This document shows, piece by piece, positions 3,836 to 61,557 of a DNA stretch of 64,000 nt. A program made the position numbers and the translations under genes. Position 1 is the first letter of the stretch, and each line of letters begins with the position of its first letter. Source of the DNA: Candidatus Bipolaricaulota bacterium (GTDB lineage Bacteria; Patescibacteriota; Patescibacteriia; UBA11705; DATKZF01); assembly GCA_035528115.1 (NCBI GenBank), contig DATKZF010000003.1:423089-487088 (forward strand), in the 5' to 3' direction. The notes beneath the pieces were generated by a model. The model had not been told where the DNA came from, ran no database searches, and was given only the letters and a program-made list of their open reading frames with translations.

Positions 3836-3950
3836 CTCCTCGAGTCTGCCTTCGACGGCCCTGAGGGGCCGCTCAGGCCCTCGAAGGGAGCGACCTCGCC
3901 ACTCGGCCGTGAGCTCGTGGCCGAACGGGAGTCGAAGACCGGCAGGCAGG
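3836..3950. repeat. GC-rich palindromic insert bracketed by CCTGCCTGC...GCAGGCAGG (expanded member of the CCTGCCTGCCGGCAGGCAGG element family)
   Basis: cctgcctgctcctcgag...ccggcaggcagg with internal imperfect palindrome cttcgacggccctgagg/ggccgctcaggccctcgaag; sits between tig start and the antiporter gene stop. Confidence 0.55.
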
Positions 3951-6060: not shown

Positions 6061-6062
6061 AT

Positions 6063-6150
6063 ATACAAGATTACAGATTTGTGTACAGATTATACGAGAT
6101 AATTTCCAATCTGTATGATCTTGTATGTAAATCTCGTAATCTTGTAACTT
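6063..6150. promoter_or_regulatory. TACRAGAT word array (4 forward then 4 reverse-complement copies) immediately upstream of hup
   Basis: tacaagat, tacagat, gtacagat, tacgagat followed by atctgta, atcttgta, atctcgta, atcttgta; ends 9 nt before the hup ATG. Confidence 0.45.
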
Positions 6151-6158
6151 AAAAAAAT

Positions 6159-7276: not shown

Positions 7277-9142
7277 ATGGCAAAGGAAGAGAAAGAAAAA
7301 AAGAATTTTAAAAATCCGGGTCGGTTGTTTTTCGTGGCGGCCGGCGTTTTTTTGTTTGGCGCCTTGGCTTTTGCGTTCGTTTTTACTTATCAAAAATCCC
7401 ATGAGGGCAAGATATATGATAGAGTGTGGGTCGGTGAAACGGAATTATCCAAAGCCACCATTGATTTGGCCAAACTGGCGATGAGCAAGGAATTCAATGA
7501 TAAGTACGATCAGGGCTTTGTTTTTGTTTACGGCGATAAACGAGAAAAAACATTAAACGACTATGAGGTGCTTTTGGGCGTGGAGGCGCAAATGGCCGCG
7601 CCTGATTTTGAAAAAACGGCGCAGGACGCCTTTGGAGTCGGACGTTCGGGCAATGTGTTGATTGATTTGAAGGATCAATTGTTCGGTTTGATTTTCGGGA
7701 AAAGGATAGACTTGTCGTTTTCTTTGAACCGCGATTATTTAATCGATCAGCTCAAAGAGGCTTTCGGAGAATTCGAGGACAATGCCAGATCGGCTGAAAT
7801 CGAGGTGTCCGTGAAGTCGAAAGTCAATAAAGAAATGGAAGTGAAAATAATTCCCGAAAAAGAAGGCGTGGGTTTTGATTACGAAAAGTACGCGGACATG
7901 CTGGCGGATAAAATAACGAGATTGGACAATAGCGACATTTCGATGAAACTGGAAAAGCAATCTCCGGCCATCAAAGCGGCCGATGCCGGCGGCATTGCGC
8001 AAAAAACAACGGAGTTGGTGGCGGACAATGACGAGATAAACTTTGTTTTTGAAGATCAAAAATGGACGGCGTCCTGGTATGATTACGTCTCTTGGTTGGC
8101 CTTGGACAAAGCTGATAAAAACGAAGTGATTTTGACTTTCGATAAAACGAAATTTGAGGAATTTCTTCAGCCCATAATCAAGGAAATTAATATCGCGCCA
8201 AAGAACGCCAGATTTGAATTGGCGGACGGCAAAGTGACCGAGTTTCAATTGAGCAAAAACGGCAGAGAGATAAATATTGATCAAACATTCGATGGATTAA
8301 TCAATCTGTTTTTCAAGTCCGGAGAAAATGAAATAAAATTGGCGGTTGAAGAAAAATTGCCTGATGTGAATACGGAAAACATCGCGGACATGGGCATCAG
8401 AGAATTGATCGGATCGGGCACATCCAATTTCAGCGGCAGTCCGGCAAACAGAAGATATAACATTAAAATCGGTTCGAATTCATTGCATGGAATATTGATA
8501 AAGCCGGGCGAAGAATTTTCTTTGGTGAAAAATCTCGGCAGAATCGACGGCAGCACCGGTTATTTGCCCGAGCTGGTGATTCGAGGCAATAAGACCGTGC
8601 CGGAATTTGGCGGCGGTTTGTGCCAAGTGGCCACAACTATGTTTCGCGCGGCGATTGACACCGGTTTGCCGGTTACGGAAAGAAAACCGCATTCATACAG
8701 AGTTTCATATTACGAGCCGGCCGGAACAGACGCCACCATTTACGATCCCAGTCCTGATCTGAAATTCATCAATGACACGGGACAGTATATTTTAATTCAA
8801 ACCGCAATTTCCGGAGATACTTTGACCTATGAATTTTGGGGCACGTTCGATGGCAGAACAGTGGAAGTCACTGAGCCTAAAATTTTTAATATTACCTATC
8901 CCGGTCCGACCAAGGAAATCGAATCCCCGGATCTGGCTCCCGGAGTGAGAAAATGCACGGAGCGGGCGCACAATGGAGCGGACGCGGTTTTCTACAGAAT
9001 CATCACCCCTGCTTCGGGGGACGCAATCAATGAAACTTGGTCCAGTACTTATCGGCCATGGCAGGCGGTGTGCTTGGTCGGGCCCAGCGAAGCTCCGGTA
9101 GAAGAAAGTTCCAGTGATGCCCCGGTGACCCCTGAAAATTAA
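7277..9142 (+). CDS. VanW-domain protein with N-terminal membrane anchor
   Basis: 621 aa; N-terminal TM (LFFVAAGVFLFGALAFAFVF); C-terminal VanW-like region GGGLCQVATTMFRAAIDTGLPVTERKPHSYRVSYYEP. Confidence 0.7.
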   Translation: MAKEEKEKKNFKNPGRLFFVAAGVFLFGALAFAFVFTYQKSHEGKIYDRVWVGETELSKATIDLAKLAMSKEFNDKYDQGFVFVYGDKREKTLNDYEVLLGVEAQMAAPDFEKTAQDAFGVGRSGNVLIDLKDQLFGLIFGKRIDLSFSLNRDYLIDQLKEAFGEFEDNARSAEIEVSVKSKVNKEMEVKIIPEKEGVGFDYEKYADMLADKITRLDNSDISMKLEKQSPAIKAADAGGIAQKTTELVADNDEINFVFEDQKWTASWYDYVSWLALDKADKNEVILTFDKTKFEEFLQPIIKEINIAPKNARFELADGKVTEFQLSKNGREINIDQTFDGLINLFFKSGENEIKLAVEEKLPDVNTENIADMGIRELIGSGTSNFSGSPANRRYNIKIGSNSLHGILIKPGEEFSLVKNLGRIDGSTGYLPELVIRGNKTVPEFGGGLCQVATTMFRAAIDTGLPVTERKPHSYRVSYYEPAGTDATIYDPSPDLKFINDTGQYILIQTAISGDTLTYEFWGTFDGRTVEVTEPKIFNITYPGPTKEIESPDLAPGVRKCTERAHNGADAVFYRIITPASGDAINETWSSTYRPWQAVCLVGPSEAPVEESSSDAPVTPEN

Positions 9143-15240: not shown

Positions 15241-15284
15241 TGATTTACTTTTGGCTTGGATTATGCGAAAATAATTAATAAGTG

Positions 15285-15372
15285 AGATTACAAGATTACG
15301 AGATTTGCATACGAGATTATACAGATTAACCCGATCTCGTACAATCTGTACACCAATCTGTAATCTCGTAAA
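15285..15372. promoter_or_regulatory. TACRAGAT word array (4 forward then 4 reverse copies) upstream of tsaD
   Basis: tacaagat, tacgagat, tacgagat, tacagat then atctcgta, atctgta, atctgta, atctcgta; ends 9 nt before the tsaD ATG. Confidence 0.45.
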
Positions 15373-15380
15373 TCCAATTT

Positions 15381-17809: not shown

Positions 17810-17871
17810 GGGCGGTCTCCTTGTTGGGGGAAAATTTATTCTATCCTATTTCATAAAATATGTCAATAATA

Positions 17872-17895
17872 AAACCGCTCTCAGAGCGGTTTTAT
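17872..17895 (-). terminator. Rho-independent terminator downstream of pilB
   Basis: aaaaccgctctcagagcggtttt, perfect 8-bp stem with A/T flanks. Confidence 0.6.
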
Positions 17896-17912
17896 TATTG
17901 ATTTGAATTGTT

Positions 17913-19655
17913 TTAATCGCTGACTCTAAACACTTCTTCGATCGAAGTGATTCCATCCGCGGCTTTGAGCAAGCCGTCTTGAACCATGGTGATCATGCCT
18001 TGTTTGACGCCGAGTTCTTGAATGGAATATTCGGAGGCTTTTTCTTCCAAAATCAATTTTTCGATATCGGGATTCATGATTAATATTTCATAAATGCCGA
18101 GCCTGCCTTTATATTTCATGTTGTTGCACTCCGGGCACCCCTTGCCTCGATAAAATTTCAATTTGTTTAAATCCTTCGGCTTTTCCGGATTGGAGTCGGG
18201 TATAGCTTCCAATATTTTTTTAACTTTATCCAGAGTTTTTGCGTCAGGCTCGTATTCTTCTTTGCAGGCCTCGCAGATTTTTCTGGTTAAGCGTTGGCCG
18301 ATAATGGCGTTCAATGCCGGCGCCAGCAAAAATCCTTTGGAGCCGAGCGCCAAAAACCTGGGAATGGCGCCGGCCGCGCTATTGGTGTGAATGGTTGATA
18401 AAAGTAGATGGCCGGTTAAGGCCGCGTTGATGGCGATATCCGACGTTTCCAAATCTCTGATTTCGCCGATCATGATAATGTCAGGATCTTGCCTCATTAA
18501 TGATCTTAAGCCCTTGGCAAAATTGTAGCCCTTGGATGAATCCACCTGACTTTGGTTGATTCCTTCCAATTGATATTCGATCGGATCTTCCAAGGTGGCT
18601 ATTTTTACGTCTTGTTTATTCAGTTTATTCAAAATTGCGTAAAGCGTGGTGGTTTTACCCGAACCGGTCGGACCGGTGGTGATAATCATACCATTGGGAC
18701 GCGCCACTTCGATTTTTAATTTTTCATAGGCCTGGCCTCGCACGCCCAAATCATCAAAATTCAGACTGGTGGCGCTCGTGCGGAGCAATCTCATCACTAC
18801 GCTCTCACCATATTGCACGGGCAAAAATGAAGCGCGAACATCTATTTTTTCATCTTCGGTATCAATGCGAAACCGCCCGTCTTGAGGTTGATTGGTAATA
18901 TTGAGTTTTACTTTGGCCAAGAGTTTCAATCTGGAAATGACTTTCGGCCAATCTTCCTTTTTCAGTAAGGCGACATCATGCAATATACCATCAAGGCGGT
19001 ATCTGACTTTGATTTGCTTTTCTTCGGCTTCGACGTGAATATCCGAAGTGCCGGCTTGCAGGGCGGCGGCCACGATCAAGGCGACCATTTCCGTGGCATT
19101 GGTTTGTTCAATAACTTTTTGCAATTGAGTGAAATCCGTAAAGCCTTTTGAAAATTTGTTTAATTCTTCAGCTGATATTTCCACTCCCTTGGCGGAGGGT
19201 TTGATCTTTGGAATGCGTTTGTACATTTCCATGGCCGCGTCAAAGCCTTCTTGAGTGGATTGATATATTTCAACGTTGGCTTTTCGCCTTTCAGCTATTT
19301 GAAAAGACATTTCTTTGACTTTTTCATCTTGCGGACGGGGTGAAGCCAGTCTGATCTCATTGCCGATTTCCAAAAACACGAGCGCTTGCCGTTCCAGCGC
19401 TTGTTCTTCGGGAATAATGGACAGAGCTTCCGTGCTGATCGGAAAATTCATTAAATCAATGAACTGGATGCCTGCTGACATGGCTTGTTTTTCCACTTCT
19501 TCTTTTTTTTCCTTGCCGCGGATGGTTTTCATTTTTTGTTGAAATTTGGCTTGCGCCTCGTCTGTACCATCGTCCTTTTGGGAAGCTGATGACGATGATC
19601 CCAATACTGACGGATCCTTGAGCAAATCTTCAATTGATTGAGCTCCATTGGCCAT
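17913..19655 (-). CDS. pilB: Type IV pilus / type II secretion assembly ATPase (PilB/GspE family)
   Basis: 580 aa; N-terminal GSPII-like domain, Walker A GPTGSGKTTT, Asp box, His box, tetracysteine motif CPECNNMKYKGR. Confidence 0.85.
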   Translation of the reverse strand: MANGAQSIEDLLKDPSVLGSSSSASQKDDGTDEAQAKFQQKMKTIRGKEKKEEVEKQAMSAGIQFIDLMNFPISTEALSIIPEEQALERQALVFLEIGNEIRLASPRPQDEKVKEMSFQIAERRKANVEIYQSTQEGFDAAMEMYKRIPKIKPSAKGVEISAEELNKFSKGFTDFTQLQKVIEQTNATEMVALIVAAALQAGTSDIHVEAEEKQIKVRYRLDGILHDVALLKKEDWPKVISRLKLLAKVKLNITNQPQDGRFRIDTEDEKIDVRASFLPVQYGESVVMRLLRTSATSLNFDDLGVRGQAYEKLKIEVARPNGMIITTGPTGSGKTTTLYAILNKLNKQDVKIATLEDPIEYQLEGINQSQVDSSKGYNFAKGLRSLMRQDPDIIMIGEIRDLETSDIAINAALTGHLLLSTIHTNSAAGAIPRFLALGSKGFLLAPALNAIIGQRLTRKICEACKEEYEPDAKTLDKVKKILEAIPDSNPEKPKDLNKLKFYRGKGCPECNNMKYKGRLGIYEILIMNPDIEKLILEEKASEYSIQELGVKQGMITMVQDGLLKAADGITSIEEVFRVSD

Positions 19656-25985: not shown

Positions 25986-27644
<1,659 letters not shown>

Positions 27645-27697
27645 TTATGATTAAATTTAGTTACCAATGGTTACGAATTTACAAATTGGACAAATAC

Positions 27698-27982: not shown

Positions 27983-27991
27983 ATTTTGAAG

Positions 27992-28066
27992 CTACAAGAT
28001 GTACAAGATTTATATACAAGATATTACGAGATTACAAGATTTAGTATTTTGTACTATCTCGTACGC
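27992..28066. promoter_or_regulatory. TACRAGAT word array upstream of groES; no CIRCE element detected
   Basis: tacaagat x3, tacgagat, tacaagat then atctcgta. The HrcA operator consensus TTAGCACTC-N9-GAGTGCTAA is absent from 27983-28195. Confidence 0.4.
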
Positions 28067-28195
28067 GGATCCGGCACATCTAGGAGCAGTTAAAAAAGAT
28101 TATTTAATCTTATAACTTTATCAGCACCAATGTCAATAGCTTGAAATATCGCGGAAAATAAAAAAAGTCTTTATTTTAAAGCTTTTTGAGTTAAA

Positions 28196-32512: not shown

Positions 32513-32769
32513 ATTTTTTGAAAAAAGCTTTAAATTTCCTGATTTATCGCTTTTTTGTTAATTTAATAAAAAAAGCCAGTTTATTCATAAACCAGCCTAT
32601 TTTTAAATTATCACAAAGCGCGTTCTTTGGCAAGCGATTTCGGTGTCTTGCTAAAAAATAGTCTTTATGTTAAGCTAAGCAAAGTAAAATATTAATCGAA
32701 ACCGATTTTGTCATTTTTGAACCATCAATAAACCTCTCGGTTTATTGCAAAACCGGACCAGATTTCATT

Positions 32770-33276
32770 ATGATTGAACAGCACTATGAGTTGCTTTACA
32801 TTATTCCCGTAAAATTCGTCGGCGAAGAACAGGACAAAATAATGGAAAAAGCGACCGCAATCGTCAAAGACAACGGAGGAGAAATCACCAAGAACGTAAT
32901 TTTCAGCAAGCAAAGATTGGCGTACCCTATCGCGCAAGTCCATCAAGGCACTTACGTGATCATCGAATTCGACGCGAAAACATCGGACGTGCAAAAAATG
33001 CATGAAGTTTTAGCGTTGACGCCGGAAGTTTTAAGGCACATGATCGTGACTAAAAAGAAGATGACGGCCGAAGAGATCATGGCGCAAAACAGCAAAAAAG
33101 AGCGCATCGCTCAATCGGAGAAAAAGGAAAAGGAGCAAGACATTCAAAAGAAAGTCGAAGAAGTTCATGCGGAAGTCAAAGAAAGTCCGAAAGAATCCAA
33201 AAAAGACAAATTAAGTTTGGAGGATTTGGATAAAAAATTGGATGAGATATTAAAAGACGATATTTCCGGAGTTTAA
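32770..33276 (+). CDS. rpsF: 30S ribosomal protein S6 with extended charged C-terminus
   Basis: HYELLYIIP...EITKNVIFSKQRLAYPI signature of bS6; conserved rpsF-ssb-rpsR synteny. Confidence 0.8.
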   Translation: MIEQHYELLYIIPVKFVGEEQDKIMEKATAIVKDNGGEITKNVIFSKQRLAYPIAQVHQGTYVIIEFDAKTSDVQKMHEVLALTPEVLRHMIVTKKKMTAEEIMAQNSKKERIAQSEKKEKEQDIQKKVEEVHAEVKESPKESKKDKLSLEDLDKKLDEILKDDISGV

Positions 33277-33280
33277 ATAA

Positions 33281-33370
33281 AATAATGCGATGCGAATGAC
33301 GCGAATTACATGCGAATTATGCTAATTAAGCAAATATTCGCATCATTCGCATTATTCGTATATTAGCATC
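33281..33370. promoter_or_regulatory. GCGAATGA / TCATTCGC word array ending in ATTAGCATCGA, immediately upstream of ssb
   Basis: gcgaatgacgcgaattacatgcgaattatgctaattaagcaaatattcgcatcattcgcattattcgtatattagcatcgataat-ATG; paralogous array upstream of efp (34235-34320) ends in the same ttagcatcgaatt-ATG. Confidence 0.45.
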
Positions 33371-33376
33371 GATAAT

Positions 33377-33829
33377 ATGAATTTAAACAAAGCCATGATC
33401 ATCGGCAATTTGACCAGAGATCCGGAAGTTCGAAGCACGCCGCAAGGATTGAACGTCGCTTCGTTTTCCGTGGCCACCAATTTGATTTGGAATGACTCGA
33501 ACGGTCAGCGTCAGGAAAAAGTTGAATATCATAATGTGGTCGCCTGGAGAAAATTGGCGGATATTTGCGCGCAATATTTAAAGAAAGGCGGCAAAGTGTA
33601 TATCGAGGGCAGATTGCAAACCAGAGATTGGGAAGGACAAGACGGAGTGCGAAGATATCGGACGGAAATAATCGCTGAAAACATGATCATGCTTGACCGC
33701 CAAGGAGCTTCCGCGGGAGGCGCGGCGCGCGGCGCCGAAGAAAATATCGCTCCGGACAATTCACCGGCTCCGGCCGCATCGAGCGATGAATCAAACGATG
33801 AGATAAAAATTGAAAATATTCCTTTTTAA
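33377..33829 (+). CDS. ssb: Single-stranded DNA-binding protein
   Basis: 150 aa; OB-fold (MNLNKAMIIGNLTRDPEVR...FSVAT), Gly/Ala-rich linker, acidic C-terminal tip DEIKIENIPF. Confidence 0.9.
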   Translation: MNLNKAMIIGNLTRDPEVRSTPQGLNVASFSVATNLIWNDSNGQRQEKVEYHNVVAWRKLADICAQYLKKGGKVYIEGRLQTRDWEGQDGVRRYRTEIIAENMIMLDRQGASAGGAARGAEENIAPDNSPAPAASSDESNDEIKIENIPF

Positions 33830-34001
33830 TCGTTACAAATTTACGAATTTCGTACACCTGCCTGCCGGCAGGCAGGAATATTACAAATGGTTACGAATTA
33901 TTTTCAGCACGGATTTGTTATGAACGTTTTCTAATTTGTACCATTATTATGATATTGTACTATCCTGTATGCGAATCTCGTACATCTCGTAACCAATAAT
34001 T

Positions 34002-34229
34002 ATGATCAGAAAAAATACCGTTAAAAAAGACAAGGCTTGCTATTTTTGCGTGAATACCATGCAAGAGGTCGACTATAAGGAAGGCCAAATGCTGCAAAAA
34101 TTCATTTCTTCTTATGGCAAGATCGCGCCGCAAAGGCGCAGCGGACTTTGCGCCAAACATCAACGCAAAGTGGCGCAGGCGGTCAAGCGAGCCAGAATCA
34201 TGGCCTTGCTGCCGTTTGTGGTTAAATAA
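34002..34229 (+). CDS. rpsR: 30S ribosomal protein S18
   Basis: 75 aa; CYFC motif and ...[32 protein letters not shown]. Confidence 0.9.
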
Positions 34230-34323
34230 GCGACGCGAATATAGCAACGAACATGAGAATGACGCGAAGGAAAGCGCCAGTGTTCGCATCATTCGTGTTG
34301 TTTCGCGTCATTAGCATCGAATT

Positions 34324-34890
34324 ATGTCATCAATAGATTCATTGCACGGCATTAAAGTCGGCACGACAATCGATTACGAAGGCGAACCCTACGTGGTTGT
34401 TTCCGCCAATTTTATGCGTTGCCAACAGCGAAAACCGGTGATGCAGACGAAAATGAAAAATTTGATCAACGGCAAGGTGATTGAATACAGTTTCAAGCCC
34501 GGCGATAAAATCGAGTCGGCGAATCTGGATCGCGTCACCGCCAATTATTTGTATACCGAGGGCAATGAATGCTATTTCATGGACAATGAATCTTTTGAAC
34601 AATTTTCTTTGGAGGCTTCGGCGCTCGGCAATATGACCAGCTTTTTGATTGAAGGCCGAGACGTTGATTTGTTGAAATTCAACGGCAAGCCGGTGTCCGT
34701 GGAATTGCCGAAAAAAGTGGAATTGAAAGTGACTGAAGCGGCTCCCGGCATTAAAGGAGACAGTTCTCAAGGCGCGACCAAACAAATCACTTTGGAAACC
34801 GGCGCGCAAATGCAAGCTCCGTTGTTCATTAAAGAAGGAGACATTATCAGAGTGAACACGGAAACCGGAGAATACGTGGAACGCGTTTAA
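34324..34890 (+). CDS. efp: Elongation factor P
   Basis: 188 aa; KPGKG-region homologue KPVMQTKMKNL, three OB/KOW-like domains. Confidence 0.9.
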   Translation: MSSIDSLHGIKVGTTIDYEGEPYVVVSANFMRCQQRKPVMQTKMKNLINGKVIEYSFKPGDKIESANLDRVTANYLYTEGNECYFMDNESFEQFSLEASALGNMTSFLIEGRDVDLLKFNGKPVSVELPKKVELKVTEAAPGIKGDSSQGATKQITLETGAQMQAPLFIKEGDIIRVNTETGEYVERV

Positions 34891-34976
34891 GTCATGGAGC
34901 ATGAAACATGAATCATGGATCAAATGAAATAGCCGTGTCAGGCAGGCCAAACAATATCTAAATTAATTTTTTTAAG

Positions 34977-35065
34977 TAAATAAAAAATCGCCACTGCTTT
35001 TATGAGATCCCTGCCTGCCTGCCGGCAGGCAGGCTTCCGCGAGGATGACAATGAGGTGGTGATTT
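34977..35065. repeat. Composite palindromic terminator element (A-tract / stem / CCTGCCTGCCGGCAGGCAGG / GATGACA box / stem / T-tract) between convergent efp and SH3b gene
   Basis: aaaaaatcgccac...ccctgcctgcctgccggcaggcagg...gaggatgacaatgag gtggtgattttttg. Confidence 0.6.
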
Positions 35066-35079
35066 TTTGTTTGTTCAAT

Positions 35080-36833: not shown

Positions 36834-37065
36834 GTGTATGATAAATTTTCAGTGTTCGGTTCAAAAATCACAAAATGACGTTGTTATTATAGCAATATCA
36901 AAACATCTAGTCAATATGCCCAAAGTCGGCAAATTACTTGAAAAATTTCAATAAATCAGTTAGAATGAGTAAGAACTAATTATCATGAAACATGAATCAT
37001 GGATCATGAATCATTGATCAAGGCGAATTGATACATGATATGTGATACATGACACGTGAAAAAAT

Positions 37066-42384: not shown

Positions 42385-42470
42385 AAAAAAACCGCCACTG
42401 CTTTGAGATTCCCGCCTGCCTGCCGGCAGGCTTTCGCGGGAATGACAGACAGGTGTGGCGGTTTTTTATT
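42385..42470. repeat. Composite palindromic terminator element (best-preserved copy) between convergent rSAM gene and rny
   Basis: aaaaaaaccgccac tgctttgagattcccg CCTGCCTGCCGGCAGGC tttcgcGGGAATGACAGACAGGTG tggcggtttttt; outer stem accgccac/gtggcggt, inner stem ttcccgc/gcgggaa, central palindrome. Confidence 0.65.
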
Positions 42471-42520
42471 GAAGCTAATTGTTTCATGATCCATGATTCA
42501 TGTTCCATGCTCCATGACGT

Positions 42521-44038
42521 TTATCGCGCGTACTCAATCACTCTGTTTTCTCTAATCACAGTGACTTTGATTTCACCCGGATATTTAAGCTCGTCTTCAA
42601 TGTTCTTCGCTATTTGCTGAGCGATTTTGTGAGCGTCAATGTCATTGATCACTTCCGGCTGGACGAAAACTCGAATTTCTCGGCCGGCCTGAATGGCATA
42701 AGCTTTTTCCACGCCTTCCAATTTGGTGGCAATGTTTTCCAGCTCTTCCAATCTCTGCAAATAATTTTCATAAGTGTCTTTTCTGGCTCCGGGTCTGGCG
42801 CCGCTGATGGCGTCGGCCGCTTTGACGATAATCGCTTCCAAGGTGGTAGGTTTATCTTCGTGATGAGTCAGAATCGGAATGATTATTTCCTCGGGCAGAT
42901 TGAATTTTTTGGCAATGTCTCTGCCGATCTCGGGGTGAGTGCCTTGGATTTCATGATCCACGGCTTTGCCGATGTCATGCAAGAAGCCCGCTTTTTTGGC
43001 CACGGTCACGTCAGCGCCCAGCTGTTCCGCCAAAAGCGAGGACAGGTGAGCCACTTCCATGGAGTGCTGCAGGACGTTTTGTCCGTAACTCGTTCTGTAT
43101 TTCAATCGGCCGATTATCTGGACCAGTTTCGGGTCGAGGCCGGCAATGCCAACTTGATAGCAAGCTTCTTCGCCCGCTTTTTTTATTTCCAGCGCCAATT
43201 CTCTTTTGGCTTCTGCAATGCCTTCTTCGATTTTCGCCGGATGAATGCGTCCATCAATGATCAGTTTTTCCAGAGCTCGCTTCGCCACCTCGCGTCTGAT
43301 CGGACTGAAAGACGAAACGGTGATCACTTCGGGCGTGTCATCAACCACGATTTCCACGCCGGTCAATTGCTCGAAGGTTCTGATGTTTCTGCCTTCTCGG
43401 CCGATGATTCTGCCTTTCATTTCGTCAGAAGGCAGAGAGACCGTTGACGTGGTGATTTCCACGGCTTGACTGGCGGCGCAACGCTGAATCACATTGGCCA
43501 GCATCTTTTTTGCTTGGCGATCCAATTCCAGCGAGGCTTCCTCGTCCAGTTTTTTAATGCGGCTGGACAGAGCGTCGCTGACTTCTCTTTCCACATTGGC
43601 GAGCAGAACTTTTTGCGCCTGCTCTTTGTTCATGTTGGCGATCTTTTCGAGTTTTTCGATTTGATCGGCCTGGATTTTTTTAATTTTTTCTTTGGCCGCG
43701 TCGATTTCTTTGGCCTTGTCCTGCAATTTGGTGGTTTGGGCTTCCAGGTCCAAAAGTTTTTTGTCGAACAAATTTTCCCTGGTTTCCAATCTGTTTTGCA
43801 GTTCTTTCAATTCTTTTCTGCGGTTGTTTTCTTCTTTTTTGGCTTCGTCGATGATTTGAATGGCCTTTTCCCTGGCCGTGTACAAGATTTCTTGTTGCTT
43901 GGTCTTGGCCTCTTTGAGCATGTTTTCGGCCTTTGCTTCCGCGCCCCTGGCTTGATTGGCGGCAATGGCCTTTCTAATAAAATAACCGCTCAAAAAGCCA
44001 AGGCAGATAGCGGTTACACCGATAATAATATAAAGCAT
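42521..44038 (-). CDS. rny: Ribonuclease Y
   Basis: 505 aa; N-terminal TM, long coiled-coil, KH domain (GRIIGREGRNIRTFEQLTG), HD domain (HSMEVAHL...GFLHDIGKA). Confidence 0.9.
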   Translation of the reverse strand: MLYIIIGVTAICLGFLSGYFIRKAIAANQARGAEAKAENMLKEAKTKQQEILYTAREKAIQIIDEAKKEENNRRKELKELQNRLETRENLFDKKLLDLEAQTTKLQDKAKEIDAAKEKIKKIQADQIEKLEKIANMNKEQAQKVLLANVEREVSDALSSRIKKLDEEASLELDRQAKKMLANVIQRCAASQAVEITTSTVSLPSDEMKGRIIGREGRNIRTFEQLTGVEIVVDDTPEVITVSSFSPIRREVAKRALEKLIIDGRIHPAKIEEGIAEAKRELALEIKKAGEEACYQVGIAGLDPKLVQIIGRLKYRTSYGQNVLQHSMEVAHLSSLLAEQLGADVTVAKKAGFLHDIGKAVDHEIQGTHPEIGRDIAKKFNLPEEIIIPILTHHEDKPTTLEAIIVKAADAISGARPGARKDTYENYLQRLEELENIATKLEGVEKAYAIQAGREIRVFVQPEVINDIDAHKIAQQIAKNIEDELKYPGEIKVTVIRENRVIEYAR

Positions 44039-51055: not shown

Positions 51056-51340
51056 AAAAACCTACAAGCTACCACCGCCTATTGCCTCTCCGGCCACCCA
51101 TCGTTGTCATCTCGACCCCTCGACTTCGCTCGGGGCATGCCGTAGTGGAGAGATCCCTTTTTGTAATCAATGAGGGATTTCTCCATTCCGCCCTTCGGGG
51201 CTCCCTGCCTACCCTGCCTGCCGGCAGGCAGGCGGCAGGCAGGCGGGAATCCACAAAGCAGCGGTAGAATCATAAGCGGCGGCTTAAATCCACCTAATAA
51301 GCTAATAAGCTACAAGCTACTACGCCTATTGCCTCTCCTC
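51056..51340. mobile_element. MITE-like non-coding insert (about 215 bp) flanked by about 30-bp direct repeats
   Basis: Direct repeats ctacaagctaccaccgcctattgcctctcc (51060-51090) and ctacaagctactacgcctattgcctctcc (51310-51340). The intervening sequence contains the reverse copy of the 2111-2170 unit (ccatcgttgtcatctcgacccctcgacttcgctcggggcatgccgtagtggagagatc) and ccctgcctgccggcaggcaggcggcaggcagg. Confidence 0.5.
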
Positions 51341-54839: not shown

Positions 54840-54885
54840 TGGACTTGTTAAAATTGATAAGTACCGGATATAGCGACAAGATAAC

Positions 54886-54962
54886 TACGCAAAGAAGAAC
54901 AATAAAAAGATGCCGTGGGATGAGAGGGAGGTGGCGAGGGAGTGTTTGAGGAGGCGGGGGAA
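54886..54962 (+). repeat. Degenerate copy 2 of the Mur-ligase 3' terminus (att-like remnant)
   Basis: aagaacaataaaaagatgccgtgggatgagagggaggtggcgagggagtgtttgaggaggcggggg versus native 52600-52665. Confidence 0.7.
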
Positions 54963-55032
54963 TAATTAATTAGGGAGTTAAATATAAAAGGTAGTTGGCC
55001 AAAAGGTTCACTTAAACATTAACCAATTATGT

Positions 55033-55434: not shown

Positions 55435-55615
55435 ACGTATGGTCTAACAGCGCCTATGGTAAATGTCGTTTTCTCGCCTTCGGTGGACGATGAGCCGCAA
55501 ACGTTATCTCAATCACAGAACGCGCGATTTCGCGCGTTTTTTGGTTGATTTTTGGGGGTGGATGTGGTATGTTGGGGGTAATTAAATGGAAAATATGCCT
55601 CTATACTAATCGATA

Positions 55616-55715
55616 ATGGAAGGCGCGGAGCAGGCGATTGTGGTTAAGAATAATAAAAAGATGCCGTGGGATGAGAGGGAGGCGGCGAGGGAGGTTTTGA
55701 GGAAAATCAACAAAT
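55616..55715 (+). repeat. Degenerate copy 3 of the Mur-ligase 3' terminus (about 85 bp, att-like remnant)
   Basis: ggagcaggcgattgtggttaagaataataaaaagatgccgtgggatgagagggaggcggcgagggaggttttgagg versus native 52572-52660. Confidence 0.7.
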
Positions 55716-55769
55716 AGTAACCTATCAAAAAAGGTCAAAATATATCAGCCGAAGTTATAAGTTAATAAT

Positions 55770-58631
55770 ATGACAGGAAATTTTAAAATAGAAATCAGAC
55801 ATTTAGTTAAAAATTTTAAAGAGCAAGATGGTCAGAGACGGTCTGAAGAAGATATCCAAACCAGCTTTACTATTAAATTAATGGAGGTTCTCGGCTGGGA
55901 CAGCTCTCATTGGGCAATAAATACCGGTCAGGACGTAAAAACAGGCAAAAAGCCTGATATTGTTTTAAAATCAGGATCTTCAAAATTGATAGTTATCGAA
56001 TCAAAAGATGCCAAGAAAAAAGATATGCTTGACGGCTCATACGGCAACAAAACTTTTAAGCAGCAACTATTTAATTATTGCAAAGCGGAAGGGGTGGCCT
56101 GGGGTATTTTGACTAATTTTATTGAATGGCGATTGTACAGTGTTCATCATAGTCGATTATACAAAGAGAAGAAATATGCTTTTTACGATTTGTTATGGCC
56201 TAACGCAGATAAGAGCAGTTACGTGGATTTATTGTCCGATGAGGGGATGCAATTTCTAAATTTAATTTCAAAAGAAAATTTAATTAAAAAGAATGGAATT
56301 ATTGATCCTGATCCGATATATTATCCTGAACAGCTAGATATAGAGCAAGAAAAAATAAAAAAAGAATTTTTCAGCAAGATAAAAAATTGGCGCGAGAATT
56401 TACGAAAATTTATAAATAAAAATTATTCTAAATATACCCTTGAGGAAGTTGATTTAATGGCGCAGAAGATATTAGATCGAATGATTTTTATTGATATTTG
56501 TCATGATAAGGGCATTGTTTATGAAAATCATCTTCGTGCAATATTATCTTCAAAATTGCCCAAGTACGAAGAGTTGAAGGAGAAATTTAAGGTAATGAAC
56601 GAGAAGTTCAACACTGAGCTTTTTGCTCAAAATACTATTGATGAAATTAAAATTAGCAACGATGTAATAATCCCTATTATAGAAGAATTAGACGAAATCG
56701 ATTTTAGCAAACTTAGTGTTCACATTATTGGGGAAGTATATGAAAATTATCTGGGAGAGATAGCCAAGGGGAACGTGAAGAAAGAAGATGTAATGAAGGC
56801 AAAACAAAAAAATAAACGAAAATCGCAAGGTATATACTATACTCCTGATTACATTGTTGATTATATTGTCAAAAAGACAGTGGGTGAATTGTTGAAAAAA
56901 GCTAAAACAAAAGAGGATATAGAGAAAATTAGAGTTTTGGACCCTGCTTGCGGTTCGGGTTCGTTTTTAATTCGTGCTTTTGATGAGTTTTTTGAGGCAT
57001 ACAAGAGAGTAATGAAGGAAGGTGGGCTTTTAGGTTTTGAAATAAAGAAAAAAATATTGCAAAACAACCTTTTCGGCGTTGATTTAGATCCCAAAGCTGT
57101 GGAAATCGCCAAGCTAAACCTAATGATTAAGGCGCTTGAAGGCGCGACGCCAAACGAATTAAGAGGCGATCATTTGCTACCTAACTTGAATCTAAATATT
57201 CGTTGTGGCAATTCCTTGATTGGAGGGGAGAAGTTAAAAGAAAAGGAAAATAATTTGAATCTGTTTGACAAGTTTGACGATGAAATAAAAAAATTAATTG
57301 ATTTTAAGGAGCGGTTTCGTAAATCCATCTCTAATGATGAAAAAAAAGAAATTCTGAACGAAATTAATATATTTGAGGGATACATTAATAAAGAAGTAAA
57401 TGATAGCCTGTATAAATATTTCAAGAATTTGAATAGAATTAGGCCATTCAATTACACAATCGCTTTTTGTGAAATATTCAAAGACGGTGGATTTGATGCG
57501 GTGATTGGAAATCCGCCATATATTAGACCACATAGAATTGACACAAGTATAAAAGGATATTTATGGGAAAATTATTATTCATTCAAGGCAAAATCCGATA
57601 TCTACGTATGTTTCATTGAAAATGCAATACAACTCACGAAAAAAGGCGGACTAATTTCATATATAGTTTCAAACACATGGCTATCATTAGAGAGTTTCGA
57701 AAATCTACGAACTTTCATCCTAAACAATACAAAAATAAAAATGTTGATTAACCCTCCAGCAAAGGTTTTTAGTGGAGCGCAAGTGTCGACGATTGTTTTT
57801 GTTTTTGAAAAAGATGAATCTAAGGGAAATAAAATAATTGTAGGGGGATTATCTCAAAACGCATTCAAACTCGAGGGTGCAATAAAACAAACGCTGTTCA
57901 ATAAAACACACAAAAAAGTTTTCGATTTATCTTTACTAGATAAACAGGTTTTTTCAATAAAGGTTGCAACGACCCCGTTAAAAAAAGTCGCGAAATTTTA
58001 CTATGGAATAAAAACCGGAGATGATGAGAAATTTTTGACTTTCAAACCCAAAGATAAAAATAATTATAAACAACTTTTAAGAAGAAGTGATTTTAATCGA
58101 TATCTAATAGATTACAAAGGTGAGTATGTTTGGTACGCACCAGAATTAATGAAAGAAAATAAAGCCACCGCTCGGCCAGGAGAACCAAAAAGATTCGATG
58201 AAACAAAAATTATTATAACTGACATTGCAAAAAAAATAATTGCGACATTGGATTTACGACATTATTATATTAAAGATGCCTTAATCCTTCATCAAATAAA
58301 AAATGGTTATGATTTAAGGTATTTATTAGGTGTTATAAATTCAAAATTATTAAATTTTATCTACACCAAGACATTTAGAAATTTGAGCGTAGCTAAAAAC
58401 GCTTTTATGCAATTGCCAATTAAGATAATAGAGATTAGTGAAGAAAAAGCTTTGTATAACACAATTGTTCGCTTGGTAGACCAATTGCTTAAATTAAATA
58501 AGACTACAGAATCCCGCGAAATAAACAAAACAAAAATCCAGGCGCTGGATTATGAAATTGATAAGATGGTGTATAAGCTTTATGGGTTGGGGGAGTCTGA
58601 GATAAAAACAATTGAACAAGCTGTAAAATAA
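55770..58631 (+). CDS. Type IIG restriction-modification enzyme (MmeI/Eco57I-like: N-terminal PD-ExK nuclease, gamma-class N6-adenine methyltransferase, C-terminal TRD)
   Basis: 953 aa; nuclease motif KPDIVL...IVIESKD; MTase motif I VLDPACGSGSFLI and motif IV IGNPPYI. Confidence 0.8.
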   Translation: MTGNFKIEIRHLVKNFKEQDGQRRSEEDIQTSFTIKLMEVLGWDSSHWAINTGQDVKTGKKPDIVLKSGSSKLIVIESKDAKKKDMLDGSYGNKTFKQQLFNYCKAEGVAWGILTNFIEWRLYSVHHSRLYKEKKYAFYDLLWPNADKSSYVDLLSDEGMQFLNLISKENLIKKNGIIDPDPIYYPEQLDIEQEKIKKEFFSKIKNWRENLRKFINKNYSKYTLEEVDLMAQKILDRMIFIDICHDKGIVYENHLRAILSSKLPKYEELKEKFKVMNEKFNTELFAQNTIDEIKISNDVIIPIIEELDEIDFSKLSVHIIGEVYENYLGEIAKGNVKKEDVMKAKQKNKRKSQGIYYTPDYIVDYIVKKTVGELLKKAKTKEDIEKIRVLDPACGSGSFLIRAFDEFFEAYKRVMKEGGLLGFEIKKKILQNNLFGVDLDPKAVEIAKLNLMIKALEGATPNELRGDHLLPNLNLNIRCGNSLIGGEKLKEKENNLNLFDKFDDEIKKLIDFKERFRKSISNDEKKEILNEINIFEGYINKEVNDSLYKYFKNLNRIRPFNYTIAFCEIFKDGGFDAVIGNPPYIRPHRIDTSIKGYLWENYYSFKAKSDIYVCFIENAIQLTKKGGLISYIVSNTWLSLESFENLRTFILNNTKIKMLINPPAKVFSGAQVSTIVFVFEKDESKGNKIIVGGLSQNAFKLEGAIKQTLFNKTHKKVFDLSLLDKQVFSIKVATTPLKKVAKFYYGIKTGDDEKFLTFKPKDKNNYKQLLRRSDFNRYLIDYKGEYVWYAPELMKENKATARPGEPKRFDETKIIITDIAKKIIATLDLRHYYIKDALILHQIKNGYDLRYLLGVINSKLLNFIYTKTFRNLSVAKNAFMQLPIKIIEISEEKALYNTIVRLVDQLLKLNKTTESREINKTKIQALDYEIDKMVYKLYGLGESEIKTIEQAVK

Positions 58632-60567: not shown

Positions 60568-61557
60568 ATGAAACAAAAAAATCATTCAAAGGGCGAAATA
60601 ATGATTTATACAACCTCGAAAAACGAGGTGGAGTTGAAGGTTCATTTTAAAAATGAATCTGTTTGGCTTGGACAAAGTGAAATTGCGTTGCTGTTTGGCA
60701 GAGAACGATCGGTTATCACCAAGCATATCAATAAGATTTTTTCTGATAAAGAAGTTGATAAAGCAAGCAATGTGCAAAAAATGCACATTGCAAATTCTGA
60801 TAAACCCGTGGAATTTTACAGCCTAGATGTAATTTTAGCCGTGGGTTACCGCGCGAATTCACCCCGCGCCATCCATTTTCGCCATTGGGCCACGAAAATC
60901 TTGAAACAATATTTAATCAAGGGTTACGCCATAAACGAAAAACGTCTGCTGGAAGCTCAAAATAAATTCAAAGAACTTCAAGAAACGGTTTTATTTTTGC
61001 AAAAACATTCAAAAAAGGAATTGTTGAAAGGACAAGAAGCGGAAATTTTAAATTTACTTGCCGATTACTCAAAAACACTTTCATTGCTTGGACAATACGA
61101 TAACGGAAAACTGGCGGAAAAGAAAGGCAAAAGGACGAAATTTATTCTGCGATACAACGATTGCTCCAATATAGCGGTTAAACTTAAAGACGGACTTATC
61201 GCCAAAAAAGAGGCCGGCGACTTGTTCGGGCATGAACGGGGAGGAAGCTTTGAAGGTATTATCTCCGGGTTGTATCAGTCTTTCGCGAGAAAGGAGCTGT
61301 ATCCCGCGATTGAAGACAAAGCGTCTCATTTGCTTTACTTAATGATCAAAGACCATCCCTTTTTTGACGGCAATAAAAGAATCGCTTCGTTTTTATTTGT
61401 TTATTTTCTGGACAGGTCAAATTATCTTTTCAAAAAATCCGGCGAGCGAAAAATCAATGACAACGCGTTGACGGCGCTGGCGCTGCTTATTGCCGAAAGC
61501 GCTCCAAAAGATAAAGAGACAATGATTAAAATTATTAAAAATTTAATTGGCGAATAA
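60568..61557 (+). CDS. RhuM-like N-terminal domain fused to Fic/Doc-family domain
   Basis: N-terminal KGEIMIYTTSKNEVELKVHFKNESVWLGQSEIALLFGRERSVITKHI (RhuM virulence-protein family); C-terminal HPFFDGNKRIASFLF matches the Fic core motif HxFx(D/E)GNxR. Confidence 0.75.
   Translation: MKQKNHSKGEIMIYTTSKNEVELKVHFKNESVWLGQSEIALLFGRERSVITKHINKIFSDKEVDKASNVQKMHIANSDKPVEFYSLDVILAVGYRANSPRAIHFRHWATKILKQYLIKGYAINEKRLLEAQNKFKELQETVLFLQKHSKKELLKGQEAEILNLLADYSKTLSLLGQYDNGKLAEKKGKRTKFILRYNDCSNIAVKLKDGLIAKKEAGDLFGHERGGSFEGIISGLYQSFARKELYPAIEDKASHLLYLMIKDHPFFDGNKRIASFLFVYFLDRSNYLFKKSGERKINDNALTALALLIAESAPKDKETMIKIIKNLIGE

Follow-up and report, generated by a model that had tools for sequence, protein, structure and literature searches.

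REP sequences and REPINs are palindromes and inverted doublets mobilised by RAYT proteins in Enterobacteria and Pseudomonas, and REPs stabilise mRNA within operons. Correia/NEMIS elements of Neisseria, together with RUP, BOX, ERIC and Nezha, are bacterial miniature inverted-repeat transposable elements (MITEs) whose hairpins can be cut by RNase III and may carry promoter-like boxes, Correia elements being the precedent for repeats that bring a promoter with them. Stem-loops in B. subtilis cggR-gapA and in the E. coli ompA leader serve as mRNA stabilisers or as RNase Y/III processing sites. The genomes of Patescibacteria are tiny and contain very little non-coding DNA; to our knowledge, no experiment has addressed how, in the absence of Shine-Dalgarno (SD) sequences, these bacteria govern the fate of mRNA or the start of translation, and we found no description of elements such as those reported here in the searchable full-text literature on Patescibacteria or the Candidate Phyla Radiation (CPR). 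We analysed a window of 64,000 nucleotides (nt) from a Patescibacteria genome (contig DATKZF010000003.1, positions 423,089 to 487,088), in which the gaps before ssb and before efp in the rpsF-ssb-rpsR-efp gene cluster resemble each other. They contain a REP/MITE-like palindromic repeat of a clade-wide family that, with a probability of about one half, is kept as a transcribed intercistronic stem-loop; nothing points to a dedicated promoter of translation genes.

Like REPs and REPINs, this repeat is a short, dispersed, imperfect palindrome in extragenic gaps that are probably transcribed, with a hairpin predicted from two inverted halves and a family consensus common to related species at different loci. 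It differs in having no GTAG/GTGG-type head, its termini being CGAYRCKAAT/ATTNGCATCG and its arms tandem 8-9-mers, and in the presence of many unrelated word families in one genome, its two copies in 64 kb, its Patescibacteria host and the absence of a RAYT among the ~60 open reading frames (ORFs) of the window. With Correia elements and other MITEs it shares a non-coding length of ~100 nt, terminal inverted repeats, a position beside genes, presumptive co-transcription and predicted hairpin folding. However, its terminal repeats are only ~10 nt long, it has no TA or other clear target duplication and no recognisable parent insertion sequence, its internal tandem-word structure is distinctive, and its orthologous copies keep their sequence far better than expected under neutrality. 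The analogy with cggR-gapA and ompA would lie in a stable stem-loop placed shortly before a highly expressed cistron of a polycistronic mRNA, and the window encodes RNase Y (42521-44038); those are single-locus structures, whereas here we have a dispersed repeat family. The element is a new form of the known dispersed intergenic palindromic repeats, and its interest comes mainly from the class-wide pattern that it exposes.

The cluster encodes ribosomal protein S6 (rpsF, 32770-33276), SSB (33377-33829), ribosomal protein S18 (rpsR, 34002-34229) and EF-P (34324-34890), all co-directional, as judged from ORFs and from Pfam labels on the source contig. The rpsF-ssb gap measures 100 nt (33277-33376) and the rpsR-efp gap 94 nt (34230-34323), and the cluster and the features within its gaps are as follows.

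32770-34890, + strand: rpsF-ssb-rpsR-efp cluster hosting both copies (ORFs, Pfam labels, conserved gene order).
33287-33372, + strand: copy A, palindromic word-array element in the rpsF-ssb gap, from GCGATGCGAAT to ATTAGCATCGA (nhmmer family envelope).
33290-33326, + strand: 5' arm of copy A, words ATGCGAAT-GA-CGCGAAT-TAC-ATGCGAAT-T-ATGCTAAT (repeat families D1 and I1-I4).
33335-33369, + strand: 3' arm of copy A, tandem 9-mers TATTCGCAT, CATTCGCAT, TATTCGTAT and TATTAGCAT (repeat family D2, spacing 9, 9 and 8).
33370-33376, + strand: predicted unpaired A/T-rich tail CGATAAT before the ssb ATG (33377), a generic SD-less context (fold).
34230-34320, + strand: copy B in the rpsR-efp gap, from GCGACGCGAAT to ATTAGCATCGA, more diverged (nhmmer, 67 bits).

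By alignment, the two gaps are diverged copies, ~70% identical, of one palindromic repeat element of 84-91 nt. The local alignment has 64 matches in 91 columns and spans 87 of the 100 nt before ssb and 91 of the 94 nt before efp, with a score of 43 against a mean of 16.9 (sd 2.8, maximum 33-37) in 1000-2000 dinucleotide shuffles (z ~9). The original prediction that the regions upstream of ssb and efp share word content was therefore confirmed over the whole gaps, and the likeness extends beyond the short words and exceeds that of random AT-rich 90-mers. Three exact 11-13-mers, GAATGACGCGAA, TTCGCATCATTCG and ATTAGCATCGA, each occur exactly twice in the 64 kb, in just these two gaps and in the same order. 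Low-complexity AT-rich gaps can reach 50-60% identity under lenient gap scoring (free end gaps) even when shuffled, which would favour chance similarity, but because the strict local score beats all shuffles and the three words, found nowhere else in the window, keep their order, we reject chance as practically negligible. The pair does not stand out in the window, ranking 11th among 630 intergenic pairs, and several other gaps share stronger repeats.

Each gap forms a single long imperfect palindrome, with arms built from tandem 8-9-nt words, ATGCGAAT in the 5' arm and its complement ATTCGCAT in the 3' arm. These words and their variants are the true repeat unit; the 8-mers GCGAATGA and TCATTCGC first singled out are each found a single time, both of them in the ssb copy. 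The ssb copy has three to four words per arm (ATGCKAAT words in the 5' arm), while those of the efp copy are fewer and more degenerate, with inverted repeats at 34232-34239/34302-34309 and 34253-34268/34302-34317. The 3' arm of the ssb copy pairs with 33288-33297 (inverted repeat I8), its last 9-mer TATTAGCAT corresponding to the ATTAGCAT(CGA) of the first reading, and the terminal inverted repeat is formed by CGATGCGAAT and the reverse complement of ATTAGCATCG, complementary at 9 of 10 positions (I8). Both copies had been said to end in ttagcatcga(t/a)aat-ATG; ATTAGCATCGA is indeed shared, but the efp junction actually reads ATTAGCATCGA-ATT-ATG. Nor is the junction special, ATTAGCATCGA being the last repeat word and the base of the stem, where its partner is CGATGCGAAT at the 5' end (I8), and AAT and ATT being the two commonest start contexts in the window (24 of 47 ATG-start genes; AAT in 17 and ATT in 7). 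T stands at position −1 in 37 of these genes and an SD-like 4-mer precedes 3. The genome is essentially SD-free, G making up 11% of positions −20 to −1 at window gene starts compared with 23% overall.

As RNA, the ssb copy is predicted to fold at −33.4 kcal/mol (z −3.95, with 0 of 200 shuffles as stable), leaving CGAUAAU-AUG unpaired. We found no intrinsic terminator in either gap, the stems being A/T-rich and followed by ATTAGCATCGA or CGATAAT, and no Rfam family overlaps either gap even at E up to 10; within the window, tRNA-Glu alone attains the gathering score. (A)TAAT stands on either side of the ssb copy, whereas TAA and ATT border the efp copy; being AT-rich, these flanks are uninformative on target-site duplication. 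TTAGCA/TGCTAA, as in a CIRCE/HrcA operator, is present, but the half-site order and spacing are wrong in a by-eye comparison. For ssb itself, the source annotation starts at 33395 (144 amino acids) and the ORF at ATG 33377 (150 amino acids); SSB alignments to three relatives (L082, L084 and L090; L numbers denote related loci) start at residue 1 of the 150-amino-acid ORF (MNLNKAMIIGNL), which favours ATG 33377.

The nearest species representatives are Uhrbacteria and Buchananbacteria metagenome-assembled genomes, whose EF-P is just 60% identical; most loci from genome and metagenome scans were similarly distant (EF-P ≤60%), and close relatives were found via exact-protein look-ups (EF-P identity to the window 80% for L082 and 71% for L084). 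In L084, a homologous element occupies the same rpsF-ssb gap (9028-9115). The ssb-upstream elements of the window and L084 are identical in 78 of 99 columns (79%, z 17.6), compared with 32% at four-fold sites of the four flanking genes (n = 128; expectation from composition 19.5%), where GC3 bias is opposite. A like contrast was seen in three other orthologous hairpin pairs (L084/L087 and L090/L089 in the ssb-rpsR gap, L089/L170 in the rpsR-efp gap). Across rpsF, ssb, rpsR and efp, four-fold sites are 72% G+C in the window and 73% A+T in L084, the intergenic elements being A/T-rich in both.

In the four-member family alignment, RNAalifold gave 20 pairs with 91% of cells paired and 4 pairs changed on both sides. 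The covariation score was 0.275 compared with 0.173 in shuffles, 3 of 500 of which reach it, and pairing collapses when partners are slid against each other. The palindromy of the element is apparently maintained, and these results support, but do not conclusively establish, that the ssb copy is old and under purifying selection preserving pairing. An alternative is that the words are binding sites on double-stranded DNA, an operator or iteron-like array, with the hairpin a by-product of sites in both orientations. The arrays of 8-9-nt words spaced 8-11 nt would suit it, as would the imperfect mirroring of word order between the arms in L084, the conservation of the apical loop, the absence of strand asymmetry, and conserved arrays that are direct repeats without a hairpin, such as ATTTGTAAT upstream of groEL in four genomes. 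Orthologous sites, however, use unrelated words (CCGGAT, CAGTTG, GAACTT, TTCATTG and others), which would demand many regulators in genomes that have few, and compensatory changes at nested positions indicate pairing, so we regard binding sites as very unlikely. In the groES-groEL gaps concerned (window 27630-27697, L082 2381-2512, L084 1109-1162, L086 3019-3131), ATTTGTAAT and ATTCGTAA flank AATTAATAAATAA as direct repeats with no hairpin potential, showing that words can be conserved without pairing.

Comparison among relatives shows the element family to be dispersed in one Patescibacteria clade. Four distinct members share termini CGAYRCKAAT...ATTNGCATCG (a 10-nt inverted repeat) and are 84-91 nt long: two in the 64-kb window, one in L084 and one in L082, where the element lies as two tandemly duplicated copies in the groES 5' untranslated region (UTR), nested inside a hairpin of other words. 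A four-member nhmmer profile run over 1.04 Mb of collected loci detected no strong member beyond L082 and L084/L085. The window ssb copy scores 79-86 against L084 ssb (86-88-nt elements or whole gaps) and 72 against L082 groES in either orientation, and the efp copy, which scores 43 against the window ssb copy, gives non-significant scores against L084 (18, z 0.9) and L082 (23-29). As had been proposed, the module is duplicated and the copies are true paralogs, both window copies sharing the derived states ATTAGCATCGA, GAATGACGCGAA and TTCGCATCATTCG that the L084 ortholog lacks. Because these states are shared only with the window ssb copy, and the family is absent upstream of efp in all relatives compared, the efp copy, judged on this evidence, arose secondarily from the older ssb element, is specific to this lineage and has decayed further. 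A 3' 9-mer ATATTCGCA in the rpsF-ssb gap of L082, considered as a family remnant, was not significant (score 18, z 0.3), and a viral origin was rejected, the matches of the 17-mer ATTCGCATCATTCGCAT to 23 viral contigs all being unrelated coding sequence or simple repeats. The family had also been described as a third, fully separate word family; this was not supported, since the ACGAAT/ACTAAT words of the L084 and L082 members grade into the TTACGAAT/TTACTAAT family of the window.

Sites of insertion vary among relatives. The rpsR-efp gap, 94 nt in the window, is 21 nt in L082, 18-21 nt across L082/L171 and 1-12 nt in many others, and in further relatives it holds CCGGAT, CAGTTG, CCGAAT or GAACTT hairpins; the groES 5' UTR of L084 has no hairpin insert, whereas those of the window, L082 and L086 are occupied. 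L084 and L090 have unrelated rpsF-ssb gaps, their proteins being 90% identical. Such turnover would be expected of the main rival, a purely selfish, non-autonomous REPIN- or MITE-like repeat with no host function, tolerated since it folds on itself and spread by a trans-acting transposase or by template switching into the few permissive gaps of a compact genome. The occurrence of the family at non-orthologous loci (ssb in the window and L084; groES in L082, nested in another hairpin), its terminal inverted repeats, presence or absence at the same sites among relatives with outright replacement between L084 and L090, the many other repeat families filling window gaps, G.U pairs without strand asymmetry and the resemblance of the efp copy to a decaying relic all point that way. 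Neutral decay, however, would be expected of an immobile copy, and the ssb copy is still 79% identical to its ortholog with synonymous sites near saturation and base composition shifted, the three other orthologous hairpin pairs being likewise conserved. Moreover, no transposase or Y1/RAYT domain is encoded by the ~60 window ORFs (the window being ~10% of the genome), no target-site duplication is clear, and all the arrays observed were inside transcription units. A selfish repeat explains mobility and turnover but not the slow decay of orthologous copies, and we consider it unlikely as the whole account, though it deserves serious weight.

The transcriptional setting is defined by two features outside the gaps.

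32648-32676, + strand: likely operon promoter, TTGCTA-N17-(TG)TTAAGCT (conserved in the window, L082, L084, L087 and L090).
34987-35068, strand unassigned: terminator-like hairpin with flanking A-run and T-run after efp (sequence; homologous copy at 42390-42460).

The rpsF promoter has the sigma70-like consensus TTGCYA-N17-TGTTAAGCT in five related genomes including the window, and the region after efp is convergent with an SH3-domain gene; the terminator-like hairpin there is the probable end of the transcription unit. We found no terminator-like site between rpsF and efp. Since the promoter lies before rpsF and the terminator after efp with none between, we infer that both copies occupy gaps of a single rpsF-ssb-rpsR-efp transcription unit and are transcribed. 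The gene order recurs in ~40 Patescibacteria loci, and the three intercistronic gaps of the cluster are 1-30 nt in most relatives. At groES, a word hairpin comes after the promoter in three cases (window, L082 and L086), each with its own words, whereas L084 has a plain 38-nt leader. Because the gaps are mostly so short and the groES hairpins follow a conserved promoter, the elements are, to judge from these loci, optional insertions downstream of promoters.

The groES promoter, TTGACA-N16/17-TATAAGATAAAYTAATC (TATAAG), is conserved in the window (~28105-28136, − strand), L082 (2795-3203), L084 (1445-1642) and L086 (3414-3772); upstream of groES, L082 has a 189-nt tandem duplication comprising leader and nested hairpins, and no CIRCE-like operator is evident at groES. 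The rpsF promoter and leader lie at 32648-32769 in the window, 8370-8496 in L084, 8390-8523 in L087 and 870-994 in L090. A structured autoregulatory RNA is expected in the same rpsF-ssb-rpsR operon, the rpsF (S6:S18) leader, but such a leader lies upstream of rpsF and the two gaps match no Rfam family. A better candidate is the leader hairpin CAATAAAC-N-GTTTATTG (32726-32747), conserved in the window, L084, L087 and L090 (L082 has the promoter, but the hairpin is not clear there), which may act as the S6:S18 autoregulatory leader and goes undetected by Rfam models.

The original prediction took the repeats for a shared promoter/leader module. Its leader part is retained, in that the module probably lies within transcribed leader or spacer sequence, and its promoter part found no support. 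In that model, an internal sigma70-type promoter in the 3' arm (TTCGCA-N16-TATATT) would give ssb, and originally efp, transcripts with a very short leader. TTCGYA-N16/17-TATATT does recur in the window ssb, L084 ssb and L082 groES copies, and the −10-like box stops 12 nt short of the ATG, a spacing that would suit a near-leaderless mRNA in a genome lacking SD sequences. The ssb-copy sequence nevertheless matches at only 9 of 12 positions, the −10 box is lost in the efp copy, and the 8 promoter-like hits in the region do not exceed background (5.7 ± 2.8 in shuffles), the hexamers following automatically from the 9-nt word period. The real conserved promoters of the clade look different and sit elsewhere, the sigma70-like promoter of this operon being upstream of rpsF with no terminator before efp; relatives manage with gaps of mostly 1-30 nt; and groES-locus hairpins of this class have a conserved promoter on one side and the ATG on the other, the one in L082 belonging to the same family, downstream of a strong groES promoter and ambiguous in orientation relative to the gene. 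An internal promoter is accordingly quite improbable. The suggested tie to translation-related genes is likewise unsupported, since SSB is not a translation protein, the family member in L082 precedes groES, and the same hairpin class precedes genes for HU, TsaD, GroES, GroEL, trigger factor and ClpP.

If the repeat is kept as an intercistronic stem-loop, each copy would fold on the mRNA into a long imperfect stem-loop ending 7-14 nt before an SD-less AUG, bringing the upstream stop codon and the downstream AUG to within ~16 unpaired nt (9 + 7 for ssb, 2 + 14 for efp). The hairpin would act as a self-folding intercistronic or 5'-leader stem-loop, which may shield mRNA segments from RNase Y/J-type decay or delimit them, or be a processing structure; alternatively, it may be a compact spacer that leaves SD-less initiation or re-initiation downstream undisturbed. 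Any sufficiently stable hairpin would seem to serve, and we propose this as the reason why unrelated word families interchange at the same sites; the replacement of hairpins by others with unrelated words, as between L084 and L090, fits a role at the level of structure. Palindromic inserts of ~90 nt in a core operon that are kept far above synonymous sites, yet swapped for unrelated-word hairpins in sister lineages, suggest that the structure itself matters or that the clade actively makes and copies palindromes by some mechanism, and either outcome would provide a testable handle on how an uncultivated phylum expresses its genes and reshapes its genomes.

Several observations weigh against a maintained RNA stem-loop. 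That the elements are transcribed and that their RNA folds in vivo is itself deduced from the DNA, the family evidence comes from just four distinct members, and the efp copy (−29.3 kcal/mol, z only −1.37) folds no better than many shuffles. Some relatives have no element at these sites, so that any role cannot be essential. The compensatory changes could stem from template-switch correction of quasi-palindromes and not from selection, and the promoter-like TTCGYA-N16/17-TATATT is kept in the 3' arm of three of the four members, making an outward promoter possible. In a strand test on 76 operon gaps, comparing sense with antisense folding energy and G.U counts, the strong operon hairpins did not have more G.U than C.A mismatches on the sense strand (78 vs 83), and both copies fold about equally on either strand, so that the structure signal could be at the level of DNA; selection specific to the sense-strand RNA found no support. 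Weak gaps fold worse on the sense strand in this test, fitting G-poor leaders, and a class rule of a purine-rich 5' arm and a pyrimidine-rich 3' arm was unsupported (21 vs 21).

Analogous word arrays (TACRAGAT, TTACRAAT, CATGRAT, GGTAGCT), often forming hairpins, occupy about one third of the larger gaps in the window. They precede genes for HU, TsaD, GroES, GroEL, trigger factor, ClpP, SSB, S18, EF-P and L32, the hairpins before HU, groES, tig and clpP being built from words other than those of the ssb and efp copies, and are missing upstream of FtsK, RecA, YchF and a P-type ATPase; single-arm arrays lie between stop codon and terminator. Comparable hairpins of other words occur in Uhrbacteria, Doudnabacteria, Buchananbacteria and other Patescibacteria loci. 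A broader reading, tentative and in our view rather improbable, is that interchangeable word-array hairpins before highly expressed housekeeping genes (HU, GroES/EL, trigger factor, ClpP, SSB, S18, EF-P and L32) form a clade-wide modular post-transcriptional layer that replaces SD-based control. A dedicated mechanism would make and copy the modules, purifying selection would then retain them as leader or intercistronic stem-loops, and these would determine mRNA stability, processing or re-initiation. Such elements can mislead gene callers and promoter predictors.

The ssb-rpsR gap of the same cluster illustrates the mixture of families.

33830-34001, + strand: ssb-rpsR gap with other word families (TTACAAAT/TTACGAAT, ATCTCGTA) and the 20-nt palindrome CCTGCCTGCCGGCAGGCAGG at 33857-33876.

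The perfect palindrome CCTGCCTGCCGGCAGGCAGG recurs at 35014-35033 and 51213-51232, in gaps and inside terminators, with variants near 3850/3990, 41095 and 42410. In L170 (1258-1280) it is inserted in the 5' arm of a CCGGAT-family hairpin that is without it in L089/L198, and it looks like a separate mobile mini-palindrome. Small GIY-YIG genes in relatives' gaps are another kind of insertion into the same operon: L023 has a 311-nt insert between ssb and rpsR (1331-1641) whose translation is GIY-YIG-like by eye, and L084 has a small gene with a Pfam GIY-YIG label in a gap (17867-18121).

The TACRAGAT/ATCTYGTA hairpin family occurs upstream of HU, TsaD and GroES at 6061-6158, 15280-15380 and 27983-28080 (fold z −7.9, −5.1 and −5.8), and also at 33940-34001; 6061-6158 is ~88% identical over 95 nt to the reverse complement of 15280-15380, so that copies lie in opposite orientation. 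Nearly identical CATGRA arrays (GTCATGGAGCATGAAACATGAATCATGGATC...) follow directly after the efp and RNase Y stops (34891-34930 and, in reverse complement, 42475-42520), both preceding homologous terminators; a related array lies before rpmF (~37000-37065), and CATGTA words follow efp in L090. Elsewhere in the window, purine-rich repeats (...GATGCCGTGGGATGAGAGGGAGGYGGCGAGGGAG...) at 54840-55032 and 55435-55769 flank a small ORF before an Eco57I-like restriction-modification gene (55770-58631), and a second repeated segment (60344-60567/61558-61700) flanks a RhuM/Fic gene (60568-61557); this may represent a mobile or defence island.

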